Assembly (NCBI GenBank): GCA_036489565.1 | Contig: DASXFN010000020.1 | Location: 392 to 64,391 of the forward strand | DNA: 64,000 bases | Source of the DNA: Terriglobales bacterium | Lineage (GTDB): Bacteria; Acidobacteriota; Terriglobia; Terriglobales; Acidobacteriaceae | Direction of reading: 5' to 3' | In this document: in pieces, positions 492 to 62,563 of the stretch | Numbering within the stretch: the first letter of the stretch is position 1 | Layout of the letters: each line of letters begins with the position of its first letter | Made by a program: the position numbers and the translations under genes | Notes under the pieces: model-generated | What the model was told of the DNA's origin: nothing | What the model saw: only the letters and a program-made list of their open reading frames with translations | Database searches by the model: none

Positions 492-959
492 TCAGCTTTG
501 CAGTGCGGGTCGCTTATAAACGTCGGGATTGTGACGCTCCATAAAACGTTCCGGTGAACCCAACGGCTTGAATCCAAATTGCGCGTAAATGCCGTGAGCA
601 TCTTTAGTGCCCAGCACCCATCGCCGCAGGCCTTGAAGATCGGGATGCTCGACGATGCACCGCATGAGCCACTTCGAAAGTCCTTTGCCGCGAAATGCTT
701 CCAGCACGAACACATCGGCAAGATAGGCAAACGTCGCGTAATCGGAAATAACTCGCGCGAAGCCAGCTTGCTGATCATTCCCGTAAATTCCGAAACATAA
801 AGAATTCTCAATCGAGCGAGCCAATACGTCGCGTGAAATTCCGGTAGCCCAATAGGAATGCGTGAGGAATTCGTGGATTACGTCCAGATTGAGGCGGCTC
901 TTGTCGGTGGTGATGACGAACTCGCCGCGCTTTTGCTCGTAATGTGATTGAGAGCGCAT
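492..959 (-). CDS. GNAT family N-acetyltransferase
   Basis: 155 aa. The acetyl-CoA binding core FVLEAFRGKGLSKWLM (R/Q-x-x-G-x-G/A type motif) and overall size fit the GNAT fold. Confidence 0.8.
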   Translation of the reverse strand: MRSQSHYEQKRGEFVITTDKSRLNLDVIHEFLTHSYWATGISRDVLARSIENSLCFGIYGNDQQAGFARVISDYATFAYLADVFVLEAFRGKGLSKWLMRCIVEHPDLQGLRRWVLGTKDAHGIYAQFGFKPLGSPERFMERHNPDVYKRPALQS

Positions 960-1007
960 TCCAATCTCACTTTTCTTCGCAACCGTTGAAAGAGGGAATA
1001 CTTTCCA

Positions 1008-1763
1008 TCACTTTCCAAACATTGGGTAGTGGCTTGCCGCCGCCATGAAGAACAATAGTGGAAGCGATAGGCAGGCGTTGATCCGCGAGCAGAGAAAAGA
1101 CATCCGCGCCATGCGCGAAGCTTTCTCCGGCACTGGCGTTCCGTTTTCCGCACTGTCTTTCGTCCACAAAATAATCCGCTTCTGAATGCGCCAGATGACG
1201 CCCCACACGTTCAGGAGCATGACCCAGCCCAATCCGCCTCCGATTCCTATCGAGAGAAGGCGATTGCTCTCCCATCCGTGGTCGTTCAGGCTTAAGAATA
1301 GCCATGCTGCTGCGATCACAATGACGGCAACAAGCGGCCCCAGTACCCATCCATTGTTGAGAACGCCTTTGCCGGGAATCAATAAAGCATAGAGAAGCGC
1401 CCAAACCACGGTCCAGATGAGAAAAAAGCTGCTCATGGCCATGCCGCTGGAGGCTTGCGCATTGTGCGCGTCGGCAGCCACAATGTTGCCCCAGTACGCG
1501 AGGCCCATGAGTACAGTCACGACGGCGGCCCAGCGGAACCACCACAACGCGCGCGACATGAGCGCGGGAAAAACTTTGCCTTTGGTGGCGGAATCCAGTT
1601 GGCTCATCAACGGGACATTGACGAGAGTAAAAAAATACAGCAATCCGAGCCATGTGATGCCCGCCAAAAAATGGATCCAGCGGACCAGCATCAAAAAATT
1701 GGTATTGAAATCGGTGGGCGGGTGGAATCCGGAGCTGAAAAGTACGGCAGCGTAATGCATCAA
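1008..1763 (-). CDS. Polytopic membrane protein, Urate_ox_N / PuuD-N-terminal-like family
   Basis: 251 aa with several hydrophobic helices. The RWIHFLAGITWLGLLYFF segment resembles the conserved start of the Urate_ox_N membrane domain. The family call is from memory only. Confidence 0.6.
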   Translation of the reverse strand: MMHYAAVLFSSGFHPPTDFNTNFLMLVRWIHFLAGITWLGLLYFFTLVNVPLMSQLDSATKGKVFPALMSRALWWFRWAAVVTVLMGLAYWGNIVAADAHNAQASSGMAMSSFFLIWTVVWALLYALLIPGKGVLNNGWVLGPLVAVIVIAAAWLFLSLNDHGWESNRLLSIGIGGGLGWVMLLNVWGVIWRIQKRIILWTKDSAENGTPVPEKASRMARMSFLCSRINACLSLPLLFFMAAASHYPMFGK

Positions 1764-1959
1764 GTTCCTCCCAATTTTTTCGGTGTGCCGTCGCGGAATT
1801 GTTAGAGCGTTCGATTTTACATCAAGAATGCGACGGGCCGGTTTTTGCGAGATGAATTGCCATTCCGATTAAAAAGCTATTGGGCTTATTCTCGACTTTC
1901 CTGTTGCTGTGCCTCACAATGGCTAACGCCGTTGTCGTAACGCAAGATAATTGATCGTA

Positions 1960-3261
1960 ATGAAACGCCTTTATCCCGCCATCGCGATATTGTTCTTGCT
2001 GCTGACGCTCCCCAGCTTAAGCAGCGGATATTCCGTCCTTACTCACGAAGAAGTTGTGGACCTGCTGTGGAAGGACCAGATACAGCCACTGTTGTTGAAG
2101 CGGTATCCGCATGCCACGCCGGATGAGTTGCGCCAGGCCCACGCCTTTGCCTACGGCGGCTGCGTGATTCAGGACATGGGATATTACCCTTTCGGCAGCA
2201 AGTATTTCAGCGATCTTGTGCACTACGTGCGTAGCGGTGATTTCGTTGAGGCACTGCTGCATGACGCTTCGGACCTCAATGAGTATGCTTTCGCGCTGGG
2301 ATCGCTGGCGCATTATGCTTCCGACATCTCGGGTCATCCCACAATCAATCGCGTCGTGGCCATCGAATTTCCCAAATTGCGAAAGAAATATGGTGACCAA
2401 GTTACCTATGAGGATGATCCTAAGGCCCATATCCGCACGGAATTCGGTTTTGATATGGAGCAGGTGGCCAAAAACCGTTACACCTCGGACCGCTATCATG
2501 ACTTTATTGGATTTGAAGTTGCCAGGCCTCTATTAGAGCGGGCTTTCGTTGATACCTACGATGTGAAACTGGACGACGTGTTCGGCGATCCGGACCTGGC
2601 GATTGGCAGCTACCGCCGCAGCGTGAGCGTGTGGATTCCGGCGATGACGCGCATCGCGCTATTGTCAGAGCGCAAAGAACTCGTTAAGGACACCCCCAGC
2701 TTCGACAAGAAAAAGTTTCTCTACTATCTTTCCCGCAAGCAATATGAGCACGAGTGGGGGACGAAATACCGCAAGCCTGGAGTCGGGACGCGAATTCTGG
2801 CATTTCTTCTCAGGATTCTTCCGAAGGTGGGCCCGTTGAGCGCTACGAAGTTTGAAATTCCCACGCAGCAGACCGAAGACATGTACATCAAGAGCGTCAA
2901 CCTGACGGTCGAGAATTATTCCGCACTGTTGCGGCAAGTGAGCGGTGCGTCTTTCGATTTTCCCGACCGCGATCTGGATACAGGCCACGATACTCAGGCG
3001 GGCGAATATCATCTTGCGGATAAAACCTACGCTCGGTTGGTGGATGATCTCTCCAAAAAGGCTTCGGGGCCGGTGTCCGCCGATCTGCGAAAGTCGGTGC
3101 TTGATTTCTATGCTGACCCAAAAGGGCCGGTGGCCACGCAAAAGAAGAAAAAGGATTGGGAAAAGCTGCAAGCGGAATTGTCTAAACTAAAAGCACACAC
3201 GATGAGCCCGTCGTCTTCCTCCGCCGCAAAGCCGTCCGCCGCCAGTCCCGCGACACAATAG
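1960..3261 (+). CDS. Zinc-dependent phospholipase C-like family protein (secreted)
   Basis: Signal peptide (MKRLYPAIAILFLLLTLPSLSSG) followed by YSVLTHEEV and HYASDISGHP His-containing motifs typical of this family. ATG 1960 preferred over TTG 1951. Confidence 0.65.
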   Translation: MKRLYPAIAILFLLLTLPSLSSGYSVLTHEEVVDLLWKDQIQPLLLKRYPHATPDELRQAHAFAYGGCVIQDMGYYPFGSKYFSDLVHYVRSGDFVEALLHDASDLNEYAFALGSLAHYASDISGHPTINRVVAIEFPKLRKKYGDQVTYEDDPKAHIRTEFGFDMEQVAKNRYTSDRYHDFIGFEVARPLLERAFVDTYDVKLDDVFGDPDLAIGSYRRSVSVWIPAMTRIALLSERKELVKDTPSFDKKKFLYYLSRKQYEHEWGTKYRKPGVGTRILAFLLRILPKVGPLSATKFEIPTQQTEDMYIKSVNLTVENYSALLRQVSGASFDFPDRDLDTGHDTQAGEYHLADKTYARLVDDLSKKASGPVSADLRKSVLDFYADPKGPVATQKKKKDWEKLQAELSKLKAHTMSPSSSSAAKPSAASPATQ

Positions 3262-3328
3262 CTGCGCAAATCAAAACGCTATCCTGTACACTGTCTGGTT
3301 CTTGCCGCACCAGGAGGATCTCGCCCGC

Positions 3329-4120
3329 ATGAGTGCTCCGCAGACGCCCACCGTCGAAGACAAGTTTTTCCACGCCAAAATCACCAAGCGCGCCGATTTC
3401 GCCTCTGACCTGTGGATGATCCGGGTGAACGTGGGCGCGGATTTTAAATTCACTCCCGGGCAATATGCGACGCTCGGCGTGCAGACTCCAGACAAGAGGA
3501 TCGAGCGCGCCTACTCCATCGTGTCTTCTCCCTACGAAAACGAAGTGGAATTTTTCTTCGAGCTGGTGCCGGAAGGCGAGCTGACGCCAAAGTTGTATGC
3601 GCTTCAGGTAGGTGACGAAGTGTTAATGCGAAAGTCTCCCAAGGGCCTGTTCACGCTGGACAAAAAGAGCGGCCATACGAACCACTTTTTGGTTTGCACG
3701 GTCACCGGGCTCGCCCCATTTGTGAGCTTCGTCCGCACCATGCACAAGGACTGGAAGGAGGGACGCTTTGGCGGCGAACACAAACTTTTTATCGTCAATG
3801 GCGCCAGCCGCTCATGGGAATTTGGATATCAGGAAGAGCTGGCAAAATTCGCCAACGAAATCCCGTGGCTAAAGTATGTGCCGACCGTCAGCCGTCCCTG
3901 GGAAGACGCCAACTGGAAGGGCGAGACCGGGCGTGTGGATGAACTACTGCGCAAATATGCCGACATGTGGGGCATGGCGGGCGACAATACGACCGCCTAT
4001 TTATGCGGACATCCGGACATGATCGAAAACGGAAAGGGAATTTTAAAGCGCGCGGGTTTCGTGAAGGAATCGATGAGGGAAGAGGTTTACTGGATCCCGC
4101 CCAAGGAGCACGGTAAATAA
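3329..4120 (+). CDS. fpr: Ferredoxin-NADP(+) reductase (bacterial Fpr type)
   Basis: R-x-Y-S FAD motif (RAYSIVSSP), NADP-binding VTGLAPFVSF, size about 263 aa. ATG 3329 follows AGGAGG at 3312-3317; the listed ORF begins at TTG 3302. Confidence 0.85.
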   Translation: MSAPQTPTVEDKFFHAKITKRADFASDLWMIRVNVGADFKFTPGQYATLGVQTPDKRIERAYSIVSSPYENEVEFFFELVPEGELTPKLYALQVGDEVLMRKSPKGLFTLDKKSGHTNHFLVCTVTGLAPFVSFVRTMHKDWKEGRFGGEHKLFIVNGASRSWEFGYQEELAKFANEIPWLKYVPTVSRPWEDANWKGETGRVDELLRKYADMWGMAGDNTTAYLCGHPDMIENGKGILKRAGFVKESMREEVYWIPPKEHGK

Positions 4121-4148
4121 TCGGCGGACTGTTCTTTTCGAAGGCTGC

Positions 4149-4439
4149 CTACTTCCAGGAATCCTGGGTGCGAATTACGTCATCGTTGCCATTCGTGATT
4201 TCGACCAAGACCTCGTTTTCTTCCGGAAAGTCACCCTGCTGCAAGAGTTGCTGCGTCCACTGATTAAGCGGGGCATCGAAAATTTCATCGTATTGTGAAA
4301 ATCCATTCACGAGAATTCGGGCGCCGGTAATGGTTTCTTTGTCACCAGCCTTCGCGGAAACAGAAATGTCCCAGCCTGCAAGTGGATTACGCGCGTGAGT
4401 TACGGTTGTTTGCATCAGGCCTCGCAAAAATCTGTTCAA
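4149..4439 (-). CDS. Hypothetical small protein, downstream of the TetR gene on the same strand
   Basis: 96-aa ORF 15 nt after the TetR stop. No motif recognised. Confidence 0.45.
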   Translation of the reverse strand: MNRFLRGLMQTTVTHARNPLAGWDISVSAKAGDKETITGARILVNGFSQYDEIFDAPLNQWTQQLLQQGDFPEENEVLVEITNGNDDVIRTQDSWK

Positions 4440-4453
4440 TGGTATTTAGCCAG

Positions 4454-5041
4454 CTACTGGAAGGCCCCGCCAAAGAATATTTCCGTGTACTGCTTGGCCA
4501 GGTTGTCTGCCTGCAGCATCCCGTCTGGCTTATACCACTGGTAAATCCAATTGATCATTCCCAGCAATGCGAAAGCCGCAGCCCGTGGAGCGACGTTTCC
4601 CTTTGCTTGCCGCACCCGTTGCACTTCGGCGACCAGGTTCTCAACAAAGTGGATGTAATCTTTTTTGCGCGAATTGATTTTTTTGCGCAGCGCCGGCGGC
4701 AGCGGATGGTTCTCGTGCAGCATCACCGTGATTTCCCGATCGGTGGCGCTAAGGACGACGCCGATGTGCAGGCGAATCAAAGTCCGCAGGCGCTCTTCCG
4801 GATCAGCAATGCCGCGCGCGGCATTCACCACGCGCTCCTGGGTGATAGTCATGGCGTGGTCCATGAGGTTAAACAGGATTTCGTCTTTGCTCTGGAAGTG
4901 GTGGTAGAGGCCGCCCTTGCTTAGTTTGAGAGCGGCAGCCACATCGTTCATGGAAGTGGCGTCGTAGCCCTGTTGTTGAAAAAGGCGCGCGGCGGTGCGC
5001 AGGATTTCCTGGCGGGAGTCGGTAAGTGTCTCGCGAATCAT
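4454..5041 (-). CDS. TetR/AcrR family transcriptional regulator
   Basis: N-terminal HTH (ILRTAARLFQQQGYDATSMNDVAAALKLSKGGLYHHFQSKDEIL). Internal ATG at 5041 gives the normal ~195 aa length; the listed ORF extends to 5278 with non-protein-like sequence. Confidence 0.85.
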   Translation of the reverse strand: MIRETLTDSRQEILRTAARLFQQQGYDATSMNDVAAALKLSKGGLYHHFQSKDEILFNLMDHAMTITQERVVNAARGIADPEERLRTLIRLHIGVVLSATDREITVMLHENHPLPPALRKKINSRKKDYIHFVENLVAEVQRVRQAKGNVAPRAAAFALLGMINWIYQWYKPDGMLQADNLAKQYTEIFFGGAFQ

Positions 5042-5295
5042 GAATGGGACAGAATATACAGAGCTGGCGAAGAATGCCAACTTGCAGACTCCGATCCGGA
5101 TATCCGGAACCCGGGAGTGGCAAAAAGCTGTCAATTCGGGCTTTATGTGCCGAAATCCTTTTGGACGAATCTTTGGGGAACTGAAACCGCAATGTTGACG
5201 TATAACATTTAGGCATATGGCGGGATGTTGCGAAATCCGAGTGGAACTATTGGATTCGCGTTGCCGATTACTGAACACGCGTCCTTAGGAGGACC

Positions 5296-5790
5296 ATGTC
5301 CAATCTGACTAGAATGATTTGCCTTCTTGGAGTATTCGCGCTTCCTGCTTTTGCCGCTCCCAAGGCGAACGCCACCCATTCGGGCGACGATTCCATTGTG
5401 ATTGTGTTTAAAGACGGGCATCAGCAGAGCTTCTCCATGGCTGATATTGCCCGCATCGAATTCAGCACGCCCGCTTCAACCGCTTCCGCCCCGGTGGGCA
5501 TCAACCGCTTTCTCGGCAGGTGGACCGTGGGCGAGGGCAGTGGCATGAACAACAACTTCACCATCACTTTAAAACGGAATGGTGCGGCGGAAAAATCCAT
5601 TGGCTCTACTCACGGAACCTGGATGATCATTGACGGCGAGGCGCGGATCACATGGGATGACGGATGGCGCGACGTGATCCGGAAAGTCGGGGAGAAATAC
5701 GAAAAAGTGGCGCACTCTCCCGGCACCTCATTCGTGGACCAATCAAACAACATCACCGACGCGCGCAGAGAAGATGCGGGCCCGATCTAA
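5296..5790 (+). CDS. Secreted hypothetical protein
   Basis: Signal peptide MSNLTRMICLLGVFALPAFAAP. 164 aa, no recognised domain. Confidence 0.6.
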   Translation: MSNLTRMICLLGVFALPAFAAPKANATHSGDDSIVIVFKDGHQQSFSMADIARIEFSTPASTASAPVGINRFLGRWTVGEGSGMNNNFTITLKRNGAAEKSIGSTHGTWMIIDGEARITWDDGWRDVIRKVGEKYEKVAHSPGTSFVDQSNNITDARREDAGPI

Positions 5791-5873
5791 ACTCGGCCGC
5801 TTCTTAGTCACTTTCGGCCTCGATGTAGCTTTTGCGAACGGTTAAAATATGGCATCGCCGCATCCAACATTTC

Positions 5874-7016
5874 ATGAACACGCGGCGCCTTGTCATGCCT
5901 TCGATCGGACGACCTAAGCCGGCATTCTCGTTCAGCCTTGTCTTGCTAATGTGCTTGATCCTGCCGTCCGCATTTGCGCAGCAGACAAATGAGAAGACTA
6001 AACAGTTCCAGATGGACGGTGGTAACCAGTATTACTCTTCCTGGTTGGATCAGGATGCCCGTTGGATTATCACTGACGGCGAGCGCGCCGCATTTCATAC
6101 GTTAAAGAACGACGAAGAGCGCGATCACTTTATTGAAGCATTCTGGACGCGCCGGAACCCAACGCCAAGCGCGTTAAAAAATGCATTTGAAGACGAGCAC
6201 TATCGAAGGCTTGTCTATGCTAATGAGCATTTCGCTGGTACGGATGTTCCCGGATGGCAAACGGACCGAGGCCGGATTTACATTGTCTATGGCCCGCCCG
6301 ACGAAATCGAGCCCTTCCCGGCAGGCAAAGTTGCGAATCCACCGCTAGCAGACAATATCAATACTGCATTTCCTAAAGAGATATGGTTTTATCGGTCTAT
6401 TCCTGAGATTGGTCAGAACGTGAAAATCGGATTCGTGGACACATGCATGTGCGACGATTTTCGAATGACGGTCGATCCGCTTATGAAGGCCGGGCTTCTA
6501 CGGGCGCCCTGTGGAGATAGAAGTTACCCGAATGCGGCGGCGACAGCGCAAGACCATACGCGCATTTTAGTTAATATCAACGTTCTGGAATCTCCACCCA
6601 TCACCAAATTCCAAGATCTCGAGGAAGTCGTTCTCCATAAGTTCAACTACAATCTGTTGCCATTCGAGGTTGCGACAACATTCCAGAAAGTGACCGATGC
6701 CACATCGCTTGCTCATATCGCGATAACGGTAAATGAGGGCAATGTGAAATTCATGGACAATGGGACGCAGTTAACGGGCAGGTTGAATATGTTCGGACGA
6801 ATCGTCAACATAGGAGGCCAAATCGTGGACGACTTCGAGGGCGACCTCGAGGTGAAGCAACCGCACGAACAACTTTCGGATTTGGCAAATCATTCCGCTG
6901 CCTTGAAAAATGTAATTCCTCTGCGACCGGGTTTCTATCGACTAGAGATCGCGGTGAAAGATGTAAACGGAGACAAAATCGGAACATGGGCCCAGGGCAT
7001 CAGGGTACCTGATTAG
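5874..7016 (+). CDS. GWxTD domain-containing protein
   Basis: PGWQTDRGRIYIVYGPPDEIE matches the GWxTD signature. A signal-like hydrophobic N-terminus precedes it. Start at ATG 5874 or 5895. Confidence 0.8.
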   Translation: MNTRRLVMPSIGRPKPAFSFSLVLLMCLILPSAFAQQTNEKTKQFQMDGGNQYYSSWLDQDARWIITDGERAAFHTLKNDEERDHFIEAFWTRRNPTPSALKNAFEDEHYRRLVYANEHFAGTDVPGWQTDRGRIYIVYGPPDEIEPFPAGKVANPPLADNINTAFPKEIWFYRSIPEIGQNVKIGFVDTCMCDDFRMTVDPLMKAGLLRAPCGDRSYPNAAATAQDHTRILVNINVLESPPITKFQDLEEVVLHKFNYNLLPFEVATTFQKVTDATSLAHIAITVNEGNVKFMDNGTQLTGRLNMFGRIVNIGGQIVDDFEGDLEVKQPHEQLSDLANHSAALKNVIPLRPGFYRLEIAVKDVNGDKIGTWAQGIRVPD

Positions 7017-7031
7017 AATTCGTGTGACTTG

Positions 7032-8207
7032 TCAGGGTGCCTTAACAGCCACCAACTGCGTGAACGAGGGGATTGTCGCGCCTGCCACAAAGGGGCTCTG
7101 GCTAAGCGGCGTAAGTGCTCCGGTGGAAGAATCGATATTGAATCCCGTGATGGCACCGTCACTTGACAAAGGATTTGCCACATAAAGAAATTTTCCTAAT
7201 GGATCAATAGCTAGCGCATCAACTGGCGCCCCAACTGAGAACGGAGATCCGGGCATGGCAGTCAATGCACCCGTGGTTGTATCAACGTCATATCCCGATA
7301 TAGTTCGATCTCCTAAATCAGCAACGTAAAGAAATCTTCCTGCCGCGTCCGTTGCCATATTGAAAGGATCCAAACCAGCAGAGAATGGGGAATTTGGAAC
7401 GGCAGTAAGATTGCCGGTAGTTTCGTCAATACTCCATTCTTCAATTTGATTATCAATAAACGAGTTCCTGAAAAGAAATTGCCCCGCAACCAGCAAATGC
7501 GTTCCGAACGGATTTGAGTTTAGTGTCGTAGAGAACGGAGAGTTTGCCAAAGCAGTCAAATCGCCGGATGCGGAATCGAGCGTAAAACCAGAGACTTGGT
7601 TTGTGGAATTATCCAAATTGTCGGCGTACATGAACTTACCGGACGAATCCAATACCATCTCAAAAGGCTCGTCATTATCAGGGAAAGGAGAGCCAGTGAT
7701 TGGTGCTAGCGCTCCAGTTTGACCATCGACTGTAAATATTGCGAAGCCGGGGATACTGGTTTGACAAAGGAATTTTCCCGTAGAGTCCGTTACTATTCCT
7801 CCCGCGAGGCCTGGAAAGGGAAGCGTCCCCGCTGAAAAAGGCGATCCGCTCGCAGCGGTTAATTCACCATTGCTTGCATTGATGGAAAAAACGTCGACTT
7901 CATTATCCGGCACGTCATCGACATAAAGAAATTTCGCGCCGGGGTCAATCGCCATTGTTTTCGTGATCACATTGGTGTTCACCGGTCCGGGAGTTGGAGG
8001 CAGAGCCGTTAACGATCCGTCGGAAGAATTGATCGCAAAGCTTAAAATCTGGTTCACGCCGGAGGCGTAAAGGAACTCTGGCTGCGTGCTAGGAGAAGGA
8101 GAAGATGGCGTGGGAGTAGCTGACGGCGAGGAACCGCATCCCAGGAAGGTGCCTAGAAGTGGTAAGAGAATGCAAAGTACAAGAGCACTGCGAAGTCTTA
8201 TGAGCAT
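7032..8207 (-). CDS. Lipoprotein, lactonase-like 7-bladed beta-propeller family
   Basis: Lipobox LLGTFLGC. About seven repeats of the pattern G.L(T/A)...GSPF....P....D..GKFLYV. Start ATG 8207 preferred over 8246. Confidence 0.7.
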   Translation of the reverse strand: MLIRLRSALVLCILLPLLGTFLGCGSSPSATPTPSSPSPSTQPEFLYASGVNQILSFAINSSDGSLTALPPTPGPVNTNVITKTMAIDPGAKFLYVDDVPDNEVDVFSINASNGELTAASGSPFSAGTLPFPGLAGGIVTDSTGKFLCQTSIPGFAIFTVDGQTGALAPITGSPFPDNDEPFEMVLDSSGKFMYADNLDNSTNQVSGFTLDSASGDLTALANSPFSTTLNSNPFGTHLLVAGQFLFRNSFIDNQIEEWSIDETTGNLTAVPNSPFSAGLDPFNMATDAAGRFLYVADLGDRTISGYDVDTTTGALTAMPGSPFSVGAPVDALAIDPLGKFLYVANPLSSDGAITGFNIDSSTGALTPLSQSPFVAGATIPSFTQLVAVKAP

Positions 8208-8295
8208 TTGCGCACCATGATTGGCTGGCATTTTACCCGGTTTCACAGCAAATCGTTTGACTAAAAAGCGGCGAAGGCTCTAAGATTAACTACTG

Positions 8296-36810: not shown

Positions 36811-36870
36811 CCGTTTCGTCTCTTCTTCGTCAGGTGGAGCGGTACGGACCGTCATTCCACTGTTTATCCT
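36811..36870. repeat. 60-bp dispersed repeat, copy A
   Basis: CCGTTTCGTCTCTTCTTCGTCAGGTGGAGCGGTACGGACCGTCATTCCACTGTTTATCCT. It is nearly identical to 37648-37707 with a few mismatches. The core recurs at 42252-42272. Confidence 0.8.
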
Positions 36871-37647: not shown

Positions 37648-37707
37648 CCGTTTCGTCTCTTCTTCGTCAGGTGGAGCGGTACGAACCGCCATCCCACTGT
37701 TTATCTT
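37648..37707. repeat. 60-bp dispersed repeat, copy B
   Basis: Direct repeat of 36811-36870. Confidence 0.8.
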
Positions 37708-37964
37708 GGGTCCTATGTTGAGTACGTGCAGAAGCTTGGACATGAGGCGCCTGGGATCTATTCGTAGGGCTGTGTGCAAACGGGGTACGTCCCGTCTGTC
37801 CCCGTATTTTCCCCCGTATTTTCCAGCTTTCTTTCGGTTTACATCATTGCAATTCGCAAAGTTGGGATTAGCCCTAGGAGTGATCGACAGCCATTTCTAG
37901 TGCTATAGAATAAAAAATTACAAAGTAGCTATCAGCAAGTTTAAACTTATTCGGACTTGCCGAA

Positions 37965-39155
37965 ATGATGCCCAAACTCAACAAAAAGAGTAATGCAAAG
38001 TCAAGTGCTGCGGGAGTGCCCTCCCTGAGCATCTTTTCTGGTGCAGGAGGTCTCGACCTTGGATTGCACTTGGCGGGGGGAAGATCGCTTGCCTGTATTG
38101 AGTTTGATACAGATTGTATCGCAACGCTTAAAGCCAACCGTGTTTTCGGTAAAACAGCATTAATGGAACGCGATATTAGGGAGGTAGGTGCGGCAGAGCT
38201 TCTTGCAGTAACCGGCAGTAAAAAAAGAGAGGTGGCACTCCTGATAGGTGGCCCACCTTGCCAACCATTTTCTAAAGCTGCATATTGGACTTCCACTGGT
38301 GAAGAAGCAAGAAGGCGTGAGTCGCTACCTGGACGTATAAAGCGGACGGCAGAACCGAAATCGTATAAGAGACGCGTATTCAATCCCAGCATTGATCCTC
38401 GGTCAGAGATGATCAATGAATACCTGCGCATTCTAGCGGGGGTGCAACCCTCGGGTTTCGTATTTGAAAATGTAATGAGCATACGTCACCCTTCAAGTAA
38501 ACCTCTGTTTGAAGCTTTTTTGGTTGCTGTCAAAGAGCTCGGATATGCCGTCACGGTGTCCGAATTGAATGCAGCTGAGTTCGGCGTTCCCCAACTCCGC
38601 AAGAGAGTATTTGTTACTGGTTTGCGCGGCAAGATTTCTCCTGCCCCTCCTTTGCCAACACATTCGTTGAATAACGAACGTTCCAGAAACCTGTGGAAAG
38701 CCGTGTCCGTGGAGTCTCCGCTAGAGGCGTTCGCAGGGAAGAAATATTTTGAGAAAGAGGAAGTTATCGCAGGTAGATACGCGGAGCATCTCAAGGAAAT
38801 CCCTCCTGGATGGAACTACAAAGCATTATCCTCTTGGGCCGGACATCCGGAACCGTCATTTGAGGCAGAGACCCGTTTTTGGCACTTCCTGCTAAAGTTG
38901 CACCCTGAAAAGCCTTCTTGGACAATTGCAGCCAGCCCGGGCCCATGGACTGGCCCATTTCACTGGAAAACGCGCCGATTACGAATACCAGAATTGGCAG
39001 CACTACAAGCCTTCCCTAAGGACTACATATTTTCGGGGGTACGCCGTAGCGTACAGCGGCAGATCGGCAATGCAGTTCCTCCGCTTCTCGCCCAAAGAGT
39101 AATCGAGACCGTGCTTGGGCCCATCGAAGGAAGGAATCTAAGTGGCAATGCTTAG
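37965..39155 (+). CDS. DNA (cytosine-5)-methyltransferase, paralog 1
   Basis: Motif I SIFSGAGGLDLG, motif IV GGPPCQPFS (38247-38273), motif VI FENV, motif VIII QLRKRVFVTG, motif X QIGNAVPP. Confidence 0.93.
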   Translation: MMPKLNKKSNAKSSAAGVPSLSIFSGAGGLDLGLHLAGGRSLACIEFDTDCIATLKANRVFGKTALMERDIREVGAAELLAVTGSKKREVALLIGGPPCQPFSKAAYWTSTGEEARRRESLPGRIKRTAEPKSYKRRVFNPSIDPRSEMINEYLRILAGVQPSGFVFENVMSIRHPSSKPLFEAFLVAVKELGYAVTVSELNAAEFGVPQLRKRVFVTGLRGKISPAPPLPTHSLNNERSRNLWKAVSVESPLEAFAGKKYFEKEEVIAGRYAEHLKEIPPGWNYKALSSWAGHPEPSFEAETRFWHFLLKLHPEKPSWTIAASPGPWTGPFHWKTRRLRIPELAALQAFPKDYIFSGVRRSVQRQIGNAVPPLLAQRVIETVLGPIEGRNLSGNA

Positions 39156-40281
39156 TTCCGTGAGCCTCTTTTCCGGATGCGGTGGCCTCGACCTAGGCTT
39201 GCAATGGGCGGGTTTTCAAGCAAAAGCATGCGTTGAAATGAGCGCAGATGCGTGTGCTTCTCTCCGTGCAAACTATCTTGGGAACCACGTAATACATGAT
39301 CGTATTGAAAATGTGTCTTCGGAGTGCTTGCTGCAAGTCGCTCAAGTCCAACCCGGAGAATTAGATCTTTTATCAGGTGGTCCGCCCTGTCCGCCGTACT
39401 CAAAATCTCGGTTCTATCGCAAAGAGAAACCTCGTGCCTTGGACGACCCAACTTCCGACACCCTAGTAAATTACCTGCGAGTTCTTCGAGATTTGCGCCC
39501 ACGAGCCTTTTTGCTTGAGAACGTTGCAGGAATGGCTTTTAAAGTTCATGCACCAGCCTTGAATCTGATCCTTCGTACGGCAGAGGAGTTGGGATACAAC
39601 GTCACTTATCGCGTGGTAAACGCAGCAGATTATGGGGTCGCTCAAATGCGAGAACGACTGCTGATCGTCGGTATGCGTTCGGAATATGAGTTCCAATTTC
39701 CCGAAGAGACACACGGAGAAACTACCGAACAACTAACACTTACTGGTAAGCGGCCGTGGATAACAGCGGGCGAAGTCCTCAATGATCAGGATACGCTTGA
39801 AAATGCAGATGACACAGGGCACTTTGCGGGTGGGCAATTCCACTCGCTTCTCGAACAGATACCCCCTGGCGACAACTACTTGTTCTTCACGGCTAAGCGA
39901 GGGCATCCATATCCTCAATTCGAGTGGCGGAAGAGATATTGGTCTTTTCTCTTGAAATTATCTCCAGATTTGCCGTCGTGGACCATCCAAGCAAGACGGT
40001 CAAACAACATGGGCCCATTCCATTGGCGAAATCGTATTCTTCGGATCGAAGAAATTAAACGTCTGCAATCATTCCCAGATTCGTTTGCGCTCGAGGGAAA
40101 CATTGAGTCAGCATGGCGACAAATTGGAAATGCTGTACCACCAAAGCTGGCACATGCCGTCGGGCTAAGCATTCGCGAGGCTCTTCTTTCGCAGGAGGAG
40201 CTATTAGTGCAACTCGCAGCATCTTCTAGAAAGGTCGGCATTGATGGAGAGCATAGAGAAGCGACTGCCATTCGCGGGTGA
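39142..40281 (+). CDS. DNA (cytosine-5)-methyltransferase, paralog 2 (variant motif IV)
   Basis: Motif I SLFSGCGGLDLG, motif IV GGPPCPPYS (39376-39402), LENV, QMRERLLIVG, QIGNAVPP. Overlaps paralog 1 by 14 nt. Confidence 0.9.
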   Translation: MAMLSSVSLFSGCGGLDLGLQWAGFQAKACVEMSADACASLRANYLGNHVIHDRIENVSSECLLQVAQVQPGELDLLSGGPPCPPYSKSRFYRKEKPRALDDPTSDTLVNYLRVLRDLRPRAFLLENVAGMAFKVHAPALNLILRTAEELGYNVTYRVVNAADYGVAQMRERLLIVGMRSEYEFQFPEETHGETTEQLTLTGKRPWITAGEVLNDQDTLENADDTGHFAGGQFHSLLEQIPPGDNYLFFTAKRGHPYPQFEWRKRYWSFLLKLSPDLPSWTIQARRSNNMGPFHWRNRILRIEEIKRLQSFPDSFALEGNIESAWRQIGNAVPPKLAHAVGLSIREALLSQEELLVQLAASSRKVGIDGEHREATAIRG

Positions 40282-41659
40282 ATTTTCTCCAGGACAAGTT
40301 GATCTACGTCGCGTCTTAGAACTCGCATCACAATCTGATTCCGAGAAGTCATTTGCGGAAGCAGTGCGCACTGAATATTTCGCTGACTCTTGCGAGTCCT
40401 ACAAAGGGGAAAAACGTCACATTCAGCAAACCAAACGAGCGAAGAATGTTCTTCTCGGAATGCGTGCATATAGGCTTTTGGACAGTGGATTTTTACTAAC
40501 TCCGATTGGTTCGGAACTGCTTCGCTTAGATAAGCGCTCAGCTTACCGTCACTTTGCAGCGCATATCATTACAGAAGTGCACGGTCAAAACGTTTTAGGC
40601 GCAGTCGATCGGTTATATACAAAAGGCGACAGGGTTGGGAAAGCGAGCATTAGCCTGGAATTGCGGCGTTCTGGATACATCATGCCAACCGCAACAACAG
40701 CTCATCTGATATTACTGAAGTGGCTTCGAGAAGCTGGCTTGTTCCTCAAGGATAAATCGTACGAATTGAACCGTACAGTTCTTAGCGAAATACTTGGAAC
40801 AACTCAAACTATCTTGACGGACTTGGATGGCCTATCACATAACGAACGAATATTCCTTCTTGCTTTAACAAAATTGATCACAGATGAAACCAAAAGCTTA
40901 AAGGTTTCGGACGTAATGGAATATGCTCAGAATCTCCTAAACTTAAAAGTACGAGAGGATCAATGGCGCTCTAAACTTCTCGATCCGCTAAGTAAAGCAG
41001 GCTGGATTGCCCTTGAATCTGGTACTAGTGGTAGAGGCGCGAAATCAGGAAGAGTGACGCCAACAGAGGTATTTAAGAGTCAGTACCTAGCACCGCTTTT
41101 ACAACAGCAAGAATCCGAGATGCCACAAGAACTAAGGAAAGGGCTAAATCGGTCGTTCGACAAAATCTTAGCTGAGATGGCCTCAGAAGATACATATATT
41201 AAAGGCACCGCGTTAGAGCATCTTGCTGGAAGAATCACCCAACTGCTTGATTTGAAACCCAAACATCTGCGTTTAAGGTCTTCGATGACAGGTGGTACGG
41301 AGGTGGATCTGATTGCTGAGTCTACGCGGCTCATCTTTAGTCGATGGCAAGTACAATGTAAAAATACTAAAACTTTGGCGGCAGATGATGTTGCGAAAGA
41401 AGTGGGTATCGCAGTCAGTTTGCGGTCACAGGTAATTCTTATGGTCACGACGGGACGTGCTGGTAAGGTGGTTTATCAGTATGGTCGTAAAATTAATGAA
41501 ACAACTGCAATGCAAGTAATTGTTCTTGATGGTAAAGACCTGCAAGAAGTTGCGAAAGACTCGTCTGCTGCTGGTGTTACACTCACGAAAATTTTGGACA
41601 GCAGAGCCGAGCAAGTCATGCAGCATAAAGCCGTGCAGCTTAATCTTCCCGAATATTAG
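40244..41659 (+). CDS. Restriction endonuclease-like protein: unassigned ~330-aa N-terminal region + C-terminal Mrr_cat-type PD-(D/E)xK domain
   Basis: The C-terminus reads GTALEHLAGRI...GGTEVDLIAES...RWQVQCKNTK...VILMVTTGR...VIVLDGKDLQEV, matching the D...(E/Q)xK pattern of Mrr_cat (PF04471-like). Overlaps MTase 2 by 38 nt. Confidence 0.75.
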   Translation: MESIEKRLPFAGEFSPGQVDLRRVLELASQSDSEKSFAEAVRTEYFADSCESYKGEKRHIQQTKRAKNVLLGMRAYRLLDSGFLLTPIGSELLRLDKRSAYRHFAAHIITEVHGQNVLGAVDRLYTKGDRVGKASISLELRRSGYIMPTATTAHLILLKWLREAGLFLKDKSYELNRTVLSEILGTTQTILTDLDGLSHNERIFLLALTKLITDETKSLKVSDVMEYAQNLLNLKVREDQWRSKLLDPLSKAGWIALESGTSGRGAKSGRVTPTEVFKSQYLAPLLQQQESEMPQELRKGLNRSFDKILAEMASEDTYIKGTALEHLAGRITQLLDLKPKHLRLRSSMTGGTEVDLIAESTRLIFSRWQVQCKNTKTLAADDVAKEVGIAVSLRSQVILMVTTGRAGKVVYQYGRKINETTAMQVIVLDGKDLQEVAKDSSAAGVTLTKILDSRAEQVMQHKAVQLNLPEY

Positions 41660-41741
41660 AGACGTTCCAGACACGTTATCAGGGCAAACTGGGGATAGAC
41701 GGAACCTTCCCCCGTGCCGCCTCGCTAACCTTGGCGGGTGG

Positions 41742-41860: not shown

Positions 41861-42193
41861 CTATTTCTCCATCATTCTTTTCTTGCCCTCCGTCATCACC
41901 CTCCGCAGGATCCGGTTGATGCGCGTCTGGTAGCCCGGCCCTTTGGACTTAAGCCAGTCCACCACCTCGCAATCCACGCGCAGGGAGATTCTTTGCTTCC
42001 GCGGACGGCTCCATCGCGACTCCGCTCCCGCATCCTCCTCCGCCAGCCGCAACAACTCATCTTTTACAGACGATCCTCCCCCGGCCCCACGCCCCGCCGA
42101 CGCACGCAGCCGCGCGATTTTCCCTCTCCGCAAGCGAGTCGTCCGCAACCCTGTCTTTTTCTTCTGTGTTTTCCCACGTTTAGCTGTCATCAC
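41861..42193 (-). CDS. brnA: BrnA-family antitoxin (CopG/RHH-like), apparently orphan
   Basis: C-terminus ISLRVDCEVVDWLKSKGPGYQTRINRILRRVM matches the BrnA_antitoxin signature (..lRld.dvl.wfk..G.GYQTRIN..LR.y.). Confidence 0.75.
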   Translation of the reverse strand: MMTAKRGKTQKKKTGLRTTRLRRGKIARLRASAGRGAGGGSSVKDELLRLAEEDAGAESRWSRPRKQRISLRVDCEVVDWLKSKGPGYQTRINRILRRVMTEGKKRMMEK

Positions 42194-42413
42194 ATTATTG
42201 TATAGCTCTGACCGTCATGACGATGTGTTCCCCAAGGAACACTTTCGCAGCCGCCTCTTCTTCGTAAGGTGGACTAGCCTCGGCGAGGAAGTCTCTTTGC
42301 CGAGGCCTGGGATCCAAGTGGTTCACGGAACGGTTCCACACTAATGCGCTCGCAGCGCACTTCCAGCACGGTCAGGTATTCTGTACCGCCCGGCGCTCAC
42401 CCTTGATCTCAGC

Positions 42414-58582: not shown

Positions 58583-60448
58583 TTGCTCGACTTCTTAGGC
58601 GACTTACAACGTACTCACAAGTGCGGAGCTTTGCGGTCCTCCGACTCCGGCAAAAAAGCCGTGCTCATGGGATGGGTGAACCGCCGCCGCGATCTTGGCA
58701 GCATTATTTTTATTGACCTGCGCGACCGCACCGGCGTCACTCAGGTAGTAGTAAATCGCGAGTTGAATGCCGCTGCGCACGATAAAGCCAGCTCCCTGCG
58801 CAACGAGTACGTCATCGCCGTCATCGGCACCGTGAAGCAGCGCGACGCCAACACGTTCAACAAAAATATTCCCACGGGTGAGGTTGAACTCGTTGTGGAC
58901 GAGTTGCGCATTCTCAACGAATCCAAGCAGCCGCCATTTTTGCCCAGCGAAACCGTCCTGCCCAATGAAGAGATGCGCTTGAAGTATCGTTACATTGACC
59001 TGCGCCGTGATGCCATGCAGTACAACATCGAAATGCGGCACAAAGTAACGAAGGCGATTCGCGACTATCTCTCAGCGGAAGGGTTCTTTGAAATCGAAAC
59101 GCCTTTTATGACTCGCTCCACGCCCGAAGGCGCAAGGGATTATCTCGTGCCCAGCCGCGTGCAGCCGGGGAATTTCTACGCCCTTCCGCAGTCGCCGCAG
59201 TTGTTCAAGCAGATACTGATGATCTCCGGCTTCGACCGATATTTCCAGATCGCGCGCTGCTTCCGTGATGAAGACTTGCGCGCTGACCGGCAGCCGGAAT
59301 TTACGCAAATTGATCTGGAAATGTCGTACCCACAATTGCAGATCGTTTACGACGTGGTCGAAGGGTTCGTCTCAGCTGCCTTCAAAGTTGCCGGGCACGA
59401 GATTAAAAGCAACTTCACCCGCATGAGCTATGACCAGGCGGTCCGATTGTATGGTAACGACAAGCCGGATATGCGCCTGCCCGCCATGGTGGACATTCGC
59501 GAGGCGCTCACGCCGGAAGAACTCGAAGAGCTGGCGGCAAAATTCAAGATCAGAAAAGAATTTCCCATCCAGCTCATTCGCATTCCGAAAGCTGGAGACA
59601 TTTCCGGTACCGAGCGCCGCACGATTGGAACTTACGCCGCCTATCAGCATGTGCAGGGACCGTCGTTTGTGCAGTTGATGACTGACCCCAAGCGCTTCGC
59701 GAAGGATTATCCGGCGATCTCGGAAAAAGTTCTGGCCTTCGCCAAGGTCGAAGCCGACGATCTGTGGCTTTTCGCTGCGGCATTGCATCGTCCGGAATCT
59801 CCGACGGTGATGGACCAGAGCATTCAACACTTCTGCGAGAAGTGCGGCTTTTTGCGTCTCGATCTCGCGCAAAAATATGCCGAAAAGCATGGCTTATTCA
59901 AAAAGACCGGTGATCCCGCAACGGATTTTCGTTTTCTTTGGGTCACGGATTTTCCCATGTTCGAATGGGACAAAGCCGAAAAGCGCTGGAACCCCGCGCA
60001 CCATCCGTTTACTTCCTTGCACGAAGAGGATATGGCCAAGCTCGAGGCCAACATTGACTCCGTGCACGATCCGAAATCGCCGCTGGGAGAGATACGCGCG
60101 CTGGCCTATGACGTTGTGCTCAACGGGACTGAGCTCGGCTCAGGCTCCATCCGTATTCATCGCCAGGACATCCAGAAGAAAATCTTCCAGGCCCTTGGCA
60201 TGGGCGATGAAGAAGCCCGCGCGCGCTTTGGATTCTTCCTTGAAGCGCTTGAATACGGCACGCCGCCACACGGAGGCATCGCCCTTGGTCTGGACCGCAT
60301 TGTGATGATCCTTGCCGGCGCCGATAGCCTGCGCGAAGTGATCCCATTCCCCAAGACCGCCCGCGCCGTGGACTTAATGGTGGACGCACCTACTCCAGTG
60401 GGCGAGAAGCAGTTGAAGGAACTGGGGATACAGATAAAGGCGCAATAG
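58583..60448 (+). CDS. aspS: Aspartate--tRNA ligase (bacterial type with GAD insertion domain)
   Basis: OB-fold N-terminus, class II motifs (FQIARCFRDEDLRADRQPEFTQID, GSGSIRIH, GGIALGLDR). TTG start in the track. Confidence 0.95.
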   Translation: MLDFLGDLQRTHKCGALRSSDSGKKAVLMGWVNRRRDLGSIIFIDLRDRTGVTQVVVNRELNAAAHDKASSLRNEYVIAVIGTVKQRDANTFNKNIPTGEVELVVDELRILNESKQPPFLPSETVLPNEEMRLKYRYIDLRRDAMQYNIEMRHKVTKAIRDYLSAEGFFEIETPFMTRSTPEGARDYLVPSRVQPGNFYALPQSPQLFKQILMISGFDRYFQIARCFRDEDLRADRQPEFTQIDLEMSYPQLQIVYDVVEGFVSAAFKVAGHEIKSNFTRMSYDQAVRLYGNDKPDMRLPAMVDIREALTPEELEELAAKFKIRKEFPIQLIRIPKAGDISGTERRTIGTYAAYQHVQGPSFVQLMTDPKRFAKDYPAISEKVLAFAKVEADDLWLFAAALHRPESPTVMDQSIQHFCEKCGFLRLDLAQKYAEKHGLFKKTGDPATDFRFLWVTDFPMFEWDKAEKRWNPAHHPFTSLHEEDMAKLEANIDSVHDPKSPLGEIRALAYDVVLNGTELGSGSIRIHRQDIQKKIFQALGMGDEEARARFGFFLEALEYGTPPHGGIALGLDRIVMILAGADSLREVIPFPKTARAVDLMVDAPTPVGEKQLKELGIQIKAQ

Positions 60449-61112
60449 GCTCTTCACTCCGCAACCAGCTCATCAAGTATGTTGCAGTCACGGCCCCTGC
60501 AACTTGCGTCCCAATGAATCCCGGTACGTCCAGCGGGCGAATGCCTGCGAAGCTGTCCGTAATGGACCGCGCCAGCGTCACCGCCGGATTCGCGAACGAA
60601 GTCGAAGCCGTAAACCAGTATGCCGCGGTGATGTAACAACCCACCGCAACTGGAACCGCAAGGGCGGAATTGATCCGCACGCATCCCCAGATTGCGCAAA
60701 GCAGTCCGAAGGTCGCCACAAACTCGCTGACCAGTTGCGGAAAGCCCGAGCGTTGATGCTGGGAGAGCGCATACCAATGCTGCGCGAACATCGTATGTGC
60801 CAATAGTGTTCCGAGTATGCCTCCAGCGAACTGTGCAGCTGCATAATAAAGAACCTCGTACCACGGCAAAAACTTTTTAAGTCCCATCGCCAGGCTGACG
60901 GCAGGATTCAGATGGGCGCCGGAAATCGGACTAAACGTCAGGATCAGCGCCACGAGTGCGGCTCCCGTGGCAATCGTGTTTGCCAGCAAGGCGATGGCAA
61001 CGTTTCCGCCTGCGAGCCGCTCTCCCATAATGCCCGAGCCGACCACGGCGGCCACGAGGAATGCCGTACCAAGAAACTCCGCCACTACTCGTGTTCGTAG
61101 ACGAAATTTCAT
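60390..61112 (-). CDS. MIP family channel (aquaglyceroporin-like), last gene of the ars operon
   Basis: Two NPA boxes (GAHLNPAVSLA, SFANPAVTLAR), 6 TM. ATGA overlap with the arsC stop. Confidence 0.9.
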   Translation of the reverse strand: MKFRLRTRVVAEFLGTAFLVAAVVGSGIMGERLAGGNVAIALLANTIATGAALVALILTFSPISGAHLNPAVSLAMGLKKFLPWYEVLYYAAAQFAGGILGTLLAHTMFAQHWYALSQHQRSGFPQLVSEFVATFGLLCAIWGCVRINSALAVPVAVGCYITAAYWFTASTSFANPAVTLARSITDSFAGIRPLDVPGFIGTQVAGAVTATYLMSWLRSEEPIAPLSVSPVPSTASRPLE

Positions 61113-61600
61113 TGGCGGCCGATGTTGTCAATTTCTCTTTTGATCGCGAGGCTGTCCAGAGAAACAAACGGCAGATTGAGAAACAGGCGGATTCTGCGGT
61201 CCAGCATAAAGAAAGCGTCGCGGTAGGCCTTAGCAATCTGCTCCTTGCTTCCTTGTGCTGCTGCTGGATCGGGGACGCCCCAGTGGGCCGTCATTGGTTG
61301 ATCCGGCCAGAAAGGGCAAACCTCTTTCGCGGCGTTGTCACAAACGGTAAAAACAAAATCGAGCTTAGGGGCGTCCGGTTTCGCAAACTCGTCCCAGCTC
61401 TTGCTTCGAAGGCCATTGATCGAGATGCTTGAAACTTCAAGCTGACGCAAGGCTTCGGGCCGGATCGCGCCAGAAGGATGGCTACCAGCGCTATAGGCGG
61501 TAAAGAACGGGCCGCTTTTTTGATTCATGATGGCCTCAGCCATAATGGAACGGGCAGAGTTTCCGGTGCATAAAAACAAAACGTTGTAATGGTGTGGCAT
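61109..61600 (-). CDS. arsC: Arsenate reductase, LMW-PTPase (thioredoxin-coupled) type
   Basis: P-loop LFLCTGNSARSIMAE (C-x5-R-S). 163 aa from ATG 61600. Confidence 0.9.
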   Translation of the reverse strand: MPHHYNVLFLCTGNSARSIMAEAIMNQKSGPFFTAYSAGSHPSGAIRPEALRQLEVSSISINGLRSKSWDEFAKPDAPKLDFVFTVCDNAAKEVCPFWPDQPMTAHWGVPDPAAAQGSKEQIAKAYRDAFFMLDRRIRLFLNLPFVSLDSLAIKREIDNIGRQ

Positions 61601-61611
61601 TGAGATTCTCC

Positions 61612-62058
61612 TCAGTTGCAGCAGCCGGGAGCGCAACAGGAAGCGGGTTCCTCAACCGTCTTCTCCGGCAAGTTGTCCTGCAGCACCACAAATGCCTCCC
61701 ACTCGTTCCCATCAGGGTCGCGAACCCAGGTTTTGTCCTGCGTGGCATAGCAACAGTCGGTCTGCATTTCGTCGCGGGTAAACAAACCCGCGTCGGCCCA
61801 CTTCTGGCGTATAGCCAGGACGTCCTCTGTGGAGGAAAGTTGAATGCCCATGTGGGAGAGTGCTCCGGCATCTGTGAACCTCACTTCATTGAGCGTGAAG
61901 TTCAGAGGAGGGTTCTGCACATCGAATTTGGCGTATCCCTTACGTACTTTGCTTGGCTCAATGCCGAACAGCTTGCGATAAAACTGGGTGCTGTTCTCAA
62001 CATTGCTCACATTTATGGACAGATGTGCTTTCAACGCAATTACTGATTTGTTCGGCAT
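61612..62058 (-). CDS. arsI: ArsI/CadI family VOC (glyoxalase-fold) protein, candidate C-As lyase
   Basis: 148 aa from ATG 62058 (AAGGAG upstream). Vicinal Cys pair in TDCCYATQDKTWVRDPDGNEWEAF and a Cys-rich tail SCCAPGCCN. Confidence 0.65.
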   Translation of the reverse strand: MPNKSVIALKAHLSINVSNVENSTQFYRKLFGIEPSKVRKGYAKFDVQNPPLNFTLNEVRFTDAGALSHMGIQLSSTEDVLAIRQKWADAGLFTRDEMQTDCCYATQDKTWVRDPDGNEWEAFVVLQDNLPEKTVEEPASCCAPGCCN

Positions 62059-62088
62059 GGGTACGCTCCTTCGATATCCGTTAATCAC

Positions 62089-62104
62089 ATTCGCTAATGC
62101 GAAT
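62089..62104. promoter_or_regulatory. Dyad ATTCGC-taat-GCGAAT in the arsR / arsI divergent promoter region
   Basis: Read directly. A candidate ArsR operator by position only. Confidence 0.3.
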
Positions 62105-62170
62105 ATGTAAAAGATATAGGTGCCCAACGTATTCGTCAAGACGCATTTGTTTTGATACGATTCAGGTGAG

Positions 62171-62563
62171 ATGAAGCCTGAATATCCATTAGCGCGATTG
62201 TTTGGCGCTTTCGCTGACCCAACCCGGCTCCGGCTCATCAACCTGATGGCCGAACAGGAAATTTGTGTCTGTTATTTCGTGCAAGTCATTGATGCGCCCC
62301 AGCCTAAGATCTCCCGTCACCTTGCTTATCTGCGGAAGGCTGGCATTGTCGCCACGCGGCGCGAAGGGAAGTGGATGCACTACCGGCTAGTCATGCCCGG
62401 CGATCCCCACGCCGCCATCGTGAAAGCCACCCTTGCTTCTTTGAAACAAGACAAAGAATTACAGCGTGACCTGTTGCGGCTGACCAAAGCATGTTGCGGG
62501 TCTAAGAGCCTGGTGGAACTGCTTGGGGCGCCATTACCTCGGAGCCAGTCCCTCAATAACTAG
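62171..62563 (+). CDS. arsR: ArsR/SmtB family metalloregulator
   Basis: FADPTRLRLINLM, metal site ICVCYF (C-x-C), HTH ISRHLAYLRKAGIV. Divergent from the ars operon. Confidence 0.9.
   Translation: MKPEYPLARLFGAFADPTRLRLINLMAEQEICVCYFVQVIDAPQPKISRHLAYLRKAGIVATRREGKWMHYRLVMPGDPHAAIVKATLASLKQDKELQRDLLRLTKACCGSKSLVELLGAPLPRSQSLNN

Follow-up and report, generated by a model that had tools for sequence, protein, structure and literature searches.

Do the two cytosine methyltransferase genes and the nuclease gene that lie end to end at 37965-41659 of this Terriglobales contig make up one system, and of what kind is it? I analyzed the locus in its 64-kb window, i.e., the whole 64,000-nucleotide stretch of contig DASXFN010000020.1. 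All coordinates below are positions in this window, and the three genes of the cassette are named M1, M2, and R. They very probably form a self-contained, horizontally transferred Type II restriction-modification (R-M) cassette, M1-M2-R. This reading rests on two intact methylases, an intact nuclease, the conserved linkage between them, and a natural fusion of a methylase with a relative of the nuclease (P0184). The features of a Type II R-M system that can be tested in silico were all found: intact methylase motifs, a separate nuclease active site, and conserved adjacency of the genes.

Two methylases and one nuclease in one operon

All three genes are on the plus strand. M1 (37965-39155, 396 amino acids) overlaps with M2 (39142-40281, 379 amino acids) by 14 nucleotides, and M2 overlaps with R (40244-41659, 471 amino acids counted from the ATG at 40244) by 38 nucleotides. 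These coordinates and overlaps are exactly those given in the first-pass annotation, which was made from the letters of the sequence. The start codon of M2 is GTG, with an ATG at 39148 as an alternative, and a TTG lies one codon before the ATG of R (at 40241). Shine-Dalgarno-like purine-rich stretches are found 5-10 nucleotides ahead of the M2 and R starts; GAAGGAAGGAA precedes the former and GAAAGG the latter. Thus, the overlapping ends and the ribosome-binding stretches fit a single translationally coupled operon. The three open reading frames (ORFs) are all intact, and every residue that is invariant in the nuclease family is present in R.

By profile and motif, M1 and M2 are both intact cytosine-5 DNA methyltransferases. 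M1 matches PF00145 with an E-value of 5.4e-48 (164.5 bits) and M2 with 2.5e-55 (188.6 bits; cut-off 22), and their TIGR00675 scores are 141.8 and 165.5 bits, respectively (cut-off 100.65). The 5-methylcytosine (m5C) methylase motifs that had been read in both proteins by eye were seen again in an alignment of 16 orthologues, where motifs I, IV, VI, VIII, IX, and X are visible. Motif IV of M1 is GGPPCQPFS and is followed by a basic insertion of about 26 residues, which all M1 orthologues have. M2 has the variant GGPPCPPYS, with PCP instead of PCQ in all M2 orthologues.

Did the two methylases arise by a local tandem duplication, as the first-pass annotation supposed? The resemblance from which it started is real. 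Over 372 residues, which take in the normally variable target-recognition part, M1 and M2 share 37% identity. The stretches IPPG.NY, YW.FLLKL, PSWTI, and GPFHW form a scaffold common to both lineages, within which there are lineage-specific residues, e.g., ASPGPWTGPFHW in M1 and ARRSNNMGPFHW in M2. The duplication itself was not supported. The first-position methylases of nine related cassettes are 44-81% identical to M1 and their second-position methylases are 56-80% identical to M2, while M1-type and M2-type sequences share 34-40% identity and split cleanly into two groups in a tree. The C-terminal half of a double-methylase fusion from a Romboutsia species also groups with M2. Since the orthologue groups are separate and nine other cassettes, from different lineages, have kept the gene order, M1 and M2 are an old pair that has been inherited as a unit.

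The nuclease and its N-terminal region

The C-terminal part of R (residues 317-471, encoded at 41192-41659 on the plus strand) is an Mrr_cat nuclease domain of the PD-(D/E)xK type followed by a long C-terminal helix (residues 440-466). PF04471 matches residues 320-435 with 25.4 bits (cut-off 21). Across 46 aligned full-length homologues, E325, E353-V-D355, and Q371-C-K373 do not vary. Thus, the PD-(D/E)xK site of R is intact and under selection, and the suggestion of the first-pass annotation that the third protein ends in such a module is upheld.

What precedes the nuclease domain? Residues 1-316 (40244-41191, plus strand) are a family-specific region, presumed to serve in DNA recognition, in which both branches of the family described below have the invariant residues P9, F14, S15, N68, Y76, I108, W160, and G185. 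No Pfam family matched this region of R. When the N-terminal regions of 20 homologues were scanned against Pfam at E<=10, seven weakly touched the winged-helix family DUF6293_C, and nothing else was found but weak winged-helix matches. Neither R alone nor the 46-sequence profile matched any PDB chain at E<=10.

A structure prediction of the N-terminal region, which the first-pass annotation had proposed, gave a confident model. The AlphaFold predicted local distance difference test (pLDDT) score is 87.6 for residues 1-316 alone and 90.8 for full-length R. A Foldseek search of both models against the PDB returned nothing at E<=1e-3. The weak matches include winged-helix proteins (the ORC/Cdc6 winged helix, the MarR-type regulators SarZ, AbfR, and Rot, FOXN1, and F93) and the restriction enzymes PaqCI, Nt.BspD6I, and EcoT38I, and the C-terminal part of R weakly matches nuclease-type folds of RPB5, EndoMS, and Cap4. 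Since all these matches have E>1e-3, the fold family of the N-terminal region cannot be named. The modelled secondary structure consists of helix-helix-helix-wing units, which are clearest at residues about 114-176 and 199-273. In the model, the region thus looks like tandem winged-helix modules.

A widespread nuclease family linked to methylases

Is this nuclease confined to the present locus? Proteins were scanned on a scale of 1.84 billion representatives at E<=1e-3 and clustered at 50% identity, and one genome per species of bacteria and archaea was scanned for nuclease relatives. The former gave 303 representative clusters, nearly all of them proteins of 450-510 amino acids with an R-type region at the N-terminus. 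This near-constant layout means that the N-terminal region is always joined to the nuclease domain. The latter gave relatives in 451 species genomes, of which the best 80 loci were examined. The first-pass annotation was therefore right that the N-terminal region matches nothing that can be named; that it might be peculiar to this locus did not hold. Rather, R belongs to a widespread nuclease family, present in hundreds of bacterial and archaeal genomes, for which no characterized member was found and whose N-terminal region has neither a Pfam family nor a detected solved homologue. A literature search likewise gave nothing relevant on a characterized member or on CAGCTG or N4-methylcytosine (m4C) systems with such a nuclease.

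A methylase gene lies next to or near the nuclease gene in 78 of the 80 loci, and the remaining two are cut by contig ends. Nuclease homologues never linked to methyltransferases would have spoken against the R-M module that the first-pass annotation proposed. This linkage, two PF00145 matches, and the PF04471 match now support that module. In one protein (P0184, 879 amino acids), a PF01555 methylase, the N-terminal region, and Mrr_cat are naturally fused. Another (P0164) starts with a ribbon-helix-helix domain, to which the nuclease is fused.

The methylase partners are of several kinds. An adjacent PF01555 gene, usually immediately downstream of the nuclease gene and often overlapping with it, is found in 72 of the 80 loci, which constitute the main branch of the family (within L004-L080). 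Two m5C methylase genes are found upstream of the nuclease gene in three loci, L001 (partly cut), L002, and L003. The Romboutsia locus (L006) has a fused double m5C methylase of 698 amino acids, followed by McrB-like and McrC genes, and two loci have a multi-domain methylase of 1316 amino acids. The PF01555 partners resemble M.PvuII (PDB 1BOO) closely, with an E-value of 2e-127 for the profile and 9e-107 for one member over residues 9-293; the identity is about 60% as a rough value read off the alignment. By this similarity, the usual partner in the family is an M.PvuII-like N4-cytosine methylase, and CAGCTG is the expected site.

On the side of the main branch, it was observed that homologues of M.PvuII are paired with a winged-helix plus Mrr_cat nuclease of about 455 amino acids and with no PvuII-type nuclease, and no controller gene was noticed beside these pairs. 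The main branch may represent an unrelated nuclease for the CAGCTG site that is present in many phyla.

The M1-M2-R clade

How common is the arrangement of the window? When metagenomic homologues at least 40% identical to R were added to the 80 loci, six more cassettes with two PF00145 genes and then the nuclease gene were found (L081, L082, and L164-L167). The order M1-M2-R is thus seen in L002, L003, L081, L082, L164-L167, and partly L001, making ten cassettes with that of the window. In a neighbour-joining tree, the ten nucleases that are linked to two m5C methylases group together in a single clade, with all 72 main-branch sequences outside it (50 of 50 bootstraps). The nuclease clade therefore co-varies with the type of the methylase. 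The M1-M2-R clade has exchanged the m4C methylase partner for two m5C methylases.

Two further records deserve mention. In L083, methylases that appeared broken beside an intact nuclease turned out to be a gene-calling artefact, the DNA of L082 and L083 being identical. P0012 is a truncated nuclease copy of 403 amino acids; integrase genes are close to it, while no gene for a PF00145 or PF01555 methylase is.

Did the nuclease change together with its partner? Residues 113-196 of R are the least conserved between the clades, with 26% identity between them versus 42% and 54% within them. The ratio of between-clade to within-clade identity is 0.54 for this segment, whereas the nuclease core and the remaining N-terminal segments have ratios of 0.65-0.73. 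These sequence comparisons hint that the module at residues 113-196 carries a change of specificity.

The related cassettes usually have accessory genes directly behind the nuclease gene. The gene for the mismatch endonuclease Vsr follows the nuclease gene in L001 (1687-2130), L003 (7429-7932), L164 (5408-6211), and L167 (5468-5908), and an HhH-GPD glycosylase follows it in L081 (6406-7113) and L166 (5438-6157). Vsr and HhH-GPD glycosylases are usual companions of m5C methylation. An MTaX1-HNH_2 gene is found in L165 (721-1698), L166 (6141-7139), and L167 (735-1724). No Vsr, glycosylase, MTaX1-HNH, or ribbon-helix-helix gene was found anywhere in the window. Thus, the window has a minimal three-gene version of the cassette. 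In L002, an ORF for an 82-residue RHH_3 protein (1565-1813) overlaps with the start of M1; the ribbon-helix-helix domains in L002 and P0164 could have a controller function. In the Romboutsia locus, one same-strand block (641-7353) holds the nuclease relative, the 698-residue fusion, a McrB-like MTaX1-AAA_5 gene, and McrC; Type II and Type IV systems may be combined here in one island.

Likeness to known Type II enzymes

A Type IIS system typically comprises a single nuclease gene together with two genes for methylases, of which each serves one strand (PMC1874659). BpuJI of Bacillus pumilus, which recognizes CCCGT, has a 53.9-kDa subunit, and its system includes two m5C methylases (PMC1874659). 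Its N-terminal part of about 35 kDa (about 300 residues) binds CCCGT as a monomer, and its C-terminal part of about 20 kDa (about 170 residues) is a dimeric minimal PD-(D/E)xK domain with the catalytic residues D348 and E367-x-K369 (PMC1874659). The cassette of the window is similarly organized, with two m5C methylases and one nuclease of about 54 kDa that has a presumed N-terminal recognition part and a C-terminal PD-(D/E)xK part. Even the catalytic positions are nearly equal (D355 and Q371-x-K373 in R). The gene order differs, since in BpuJI the nuclease gene lies between those of the two methylases.

Is R then a member of the BpuJI family? The N-terminal domain of BpuJI (PDB 2VLA) was not hit at E<=10 when R and its family profile were compared with PDB sequences, nor was it among the best 50 Foldseek matches of either model. 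The N-terminal regions of R homologues did not match any BpuJI model in Pfam at E<=10. The cassette may thus be likened to BpuJI in its organization, while the comparison of the N-terminal domains speaks against membership in the BpuJI family.

HgaI also has two separate m5C methylases and one nuclease, each methylase acting on one strand of an asymmetric site. The cassette shares this composition and is set beside HgaI by description only. FokI, PaqCI, and SdaI resemble R in combining winged-helix or helix-turn-helix recognition modules with a PD-(D/E)xK cleavage domain. Since the fold matches all have E>1e-3 and TM-scores of 0.2-0.3, they are no evidence that R belongs to the family of any of these enzymes.

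Recognition site and alternative readings

Does the cassette recognize an asymmetric or a palindromic site? The site is probably asymmetric, in a system organized like BpuJI or HgaI. The two conserved methylase lineages, the fused double methylase of the Romboutsia locus, and the modular nuclease are indirect support for this. A palindromic site, CAGCTG or a relative of it, seems rather unlikely within the R-M reading. The system would then be of the same Type II kind and protected by m5C, the methylases would be redundant or act on different cytosines or substrates, and R would be a Type IIP-like dimer. The pairing of the main branch with one M.PvuII-like methylase is in favour of such a site, as is the invariance of the eight N-terminal residues (P9 to G185) across both branches. 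On the other hand, all ten cassettes examined retain both methylase lineages in the same order, an argument that both are needed, and the fused double m5C methylase in Romboutsia is a classic solution for an asymmetric site. The nuclease clade is also distinct, its second N-terminal module being only 26% identical to that of the main branch.

The hexamer counts were also considered. Among the hexamers of the window, CAGCTG ranks second in under-representation (7 sites versus about 20 expected), which would suit a palindromic site. However, the most under-represented hexamers of the whole window are all palindromes (CTGCAG, CAGCTG, AGATCT, CGATCG, and ATCGAT), and CTGCAG, AGATCT, and CGATCG are equally avoided. 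Since the avoidance of palindromes is generic, these counts cannot point to the site of the cassette. As for PvuII itself, homologues of its methylase are the partners of 72 of the 80 nuclease relatives, whereas the cassette of the window has no such methylase and no controller protein. In size and layout, the 471-residue R has nothing in common with R.PvuII, which is a small homodimeric enzyme.

Could R instead be a Type IV, modification-dependent Mrr-like nuclease that happens to have two unrelated solitary methylases as neighbours? Pfam names the family of the catalytic domain, with its conserved E...D...(Q/E)xK, after Mrr, and the layout of Mrr is likewise a winged-helix N-terminus followed by PD-(D/E)xK. 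No cognate methylase is encoded with Mrr, whose activity depends on modification. In contrast, the family of R is linked to methylases throughout, often by overlapping genes; its nuclease clade co-varies with the methylase type; and it includes a methylase-nuclease fusion. The N-terminal region is also different from that of Mrr, and it matched neither Mrr_N nor any other known N-terminal family. A Type IV nuclease is thus very improbable. It is scarcely credible that M1 and M2 belong, as its methylases, to a larger defence system (Druantia type II or DISARM class 2) or that the locus is decaying and its nuclease inactive, for although the best PADLOC models include DruM and DrmMII, these matches reflect generic m5C similarity and MTase_II models are equally good, the PADLOC matches are limited to the methylases with no meaningful one for R, the neighbours are housekeeping or toxin-antitoxin genes with no DruE or DrmA/B/C near the methylases, and the three ORFs are intact with all the family-invariant residues.

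Some observations weigh against a Type II cassette with an asymmetric site. Two methylases do not prove an asymmetric site, for some palindromic systems have two, and the main branch has a single methylase of the palindrome-specific type. The Mrr_cat score of R is barely above the Pfam cut-off, and Vsr and a glycosylase are missing from the window. The promoter call is weak: a candidate promoter-like site (TCGACA-16-TAGAAT, 37884-37911, plus strand, 10 of 12 consensus matches) lies about 55 nucleotides before M1, but such sites are no commoner in the region than in shuffled sequence. No biochemical or methylome data were found for any member of the family.

How would a Type II cassette with an asymmetric site work? 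The recognition sequence would be short and asymmetric, and in the host DNA M1 and M2 would each modify a cytosine on one of its strands. R would read the same sequence via its N-terminal winged-helix modules, and its C-terminal Mrr-type domain would cut unmethylated incoming DNA. Having one active site per chain, two chains of R would join to make a double-strand break, as in FokI or BpuJI. The last position of R and the translational coupling may favour methylation ahead of restriction. In sum, the cassette is an uncharacterized Type II system and a fairly ordinary defence module from a widespread nuclease family.

Foreign composition and mobility

The cassette lies in a compositional island (37706-41700) with a G+C content of 47.9%. 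Other segments of the same size in the window (n=261) have a mean of 54.8%, a standard deviation of 1.4, and a minimum of 51.1, so that the island is 4.9 standard deviations below the mean. The low G+C content had been judged by eye in the first-pass annotation and is now computed; "AT-rich" holds only in a relative sense. The G+C content at third codon positions is 46% for M1, 45% for M2, and 40% for R, versus 63-70% for the flanking genes. The tetranucleotide distance of the island from the rest of the window is 0.301, compared with 0.151 ± 0.015 (10 standard deviations above).

The closest relative, L002, is in another acidobacterial metagenome-assembled genome, and its cassette proteins are 77-82% identical to those of the window. 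The similarity spans 38034-41652 by blastn (71% nucleotide identity) and 37983-41653 by tblastx, and the flanks are unrelated. Since only the three genes are common to the two loci, the cassette is mobile. From its foreign composition and the cassette-only similarity to L002, it is judged to be horizontally acquired, as the first-pass annotation had proposed. Related cassettes are located in defence islands or adjoin recombinase genes. A tblastn search with R matched only two plasmid records, annotated as "restriction endonuclease", and no phage records. An empty site was not found: 80 metagenome loci with relatives of the neighbouring DAHP synthase (53-90% identity) share no other window gene beside it.

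The neighbours of the operon are genes for DAHP synthase, a DUF1398 protein, BrnA, and a secreted protein of 501 amino acids. As had been noted before, none of them is functionally related to the operon, and no controller protein, integrase, transposase, Vsr, or other defence gene was found next to it. The repeats and the orphan antitoxin gene described around the locus were also recovered. A 58-nucleotide element is present upstream of the island in two copies (36811-36868 and 37648-37705) that are 95% identical, and its 22-nucleotide core recurs downstream of brnA (42252-42273). These three copies in the window have the same orientation, while none is expected by chance, and between them lie the DUF1398 gene as well as the R-M cassette with brnA. 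The brnA gene (41861-42193, minus strand; PF14384, E-value 5e-16) has no intact brnT upstream, where 220 nucleotides (42194-42413) remain to the end of the next gene. This brnA is an orphan gene or what is left of a toxin-antitoxin pair. On the minus strand, the repeat reads "...FVPLHLTKKRRNG", recalling the C-terminus of BrnT toxins. A Pfam scan of translated fragments of the 58-nucleotide repeat and of the stretch upstream of brnA, made with a BrnT remnant in mind, gave no match.

Two other stretches of the window have a low G+C content of about 49%. One (60393-62563) carries an arsenic-resistance-like cluster with genes for a MIP channel, an LMWPc ArsC-like phosphatase, a glyoxalase-family protein, and an ArsR regulator. 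The other (5832-8246) encodes a GWxTD-domain protein and a lactonase-type beta-propeller protein.

Implications

What does the cassette mean for its host and for the nuclease family? For the host genome, it is ordinary mobile defence equipment. Its value is at the level of the family, where a clean exchange of partners (one m4C methylase versus two m5C methylases) coincides with the divergence of one recognition module. The recognition sequence of R probably differs from that of the main branch. It is tentatively suggested, as a possibility short of an even chance, that a remodelled or replaced winged-helix module (residues 113-196) retargeted the enzyme from a palindromic, m4C-protected CAGCTG-type site to an asymmetric site protected by two m5C methylases, which would make it a Type IIS enzyme of new specificity. 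If this is true, the family would be a natural case of, and possibly a template for, the reprogramming of specificity together with the exchange of the methylase module. Members of each branch could reveal a new specificity and the co-evolution of recognition domains with methylase modules.

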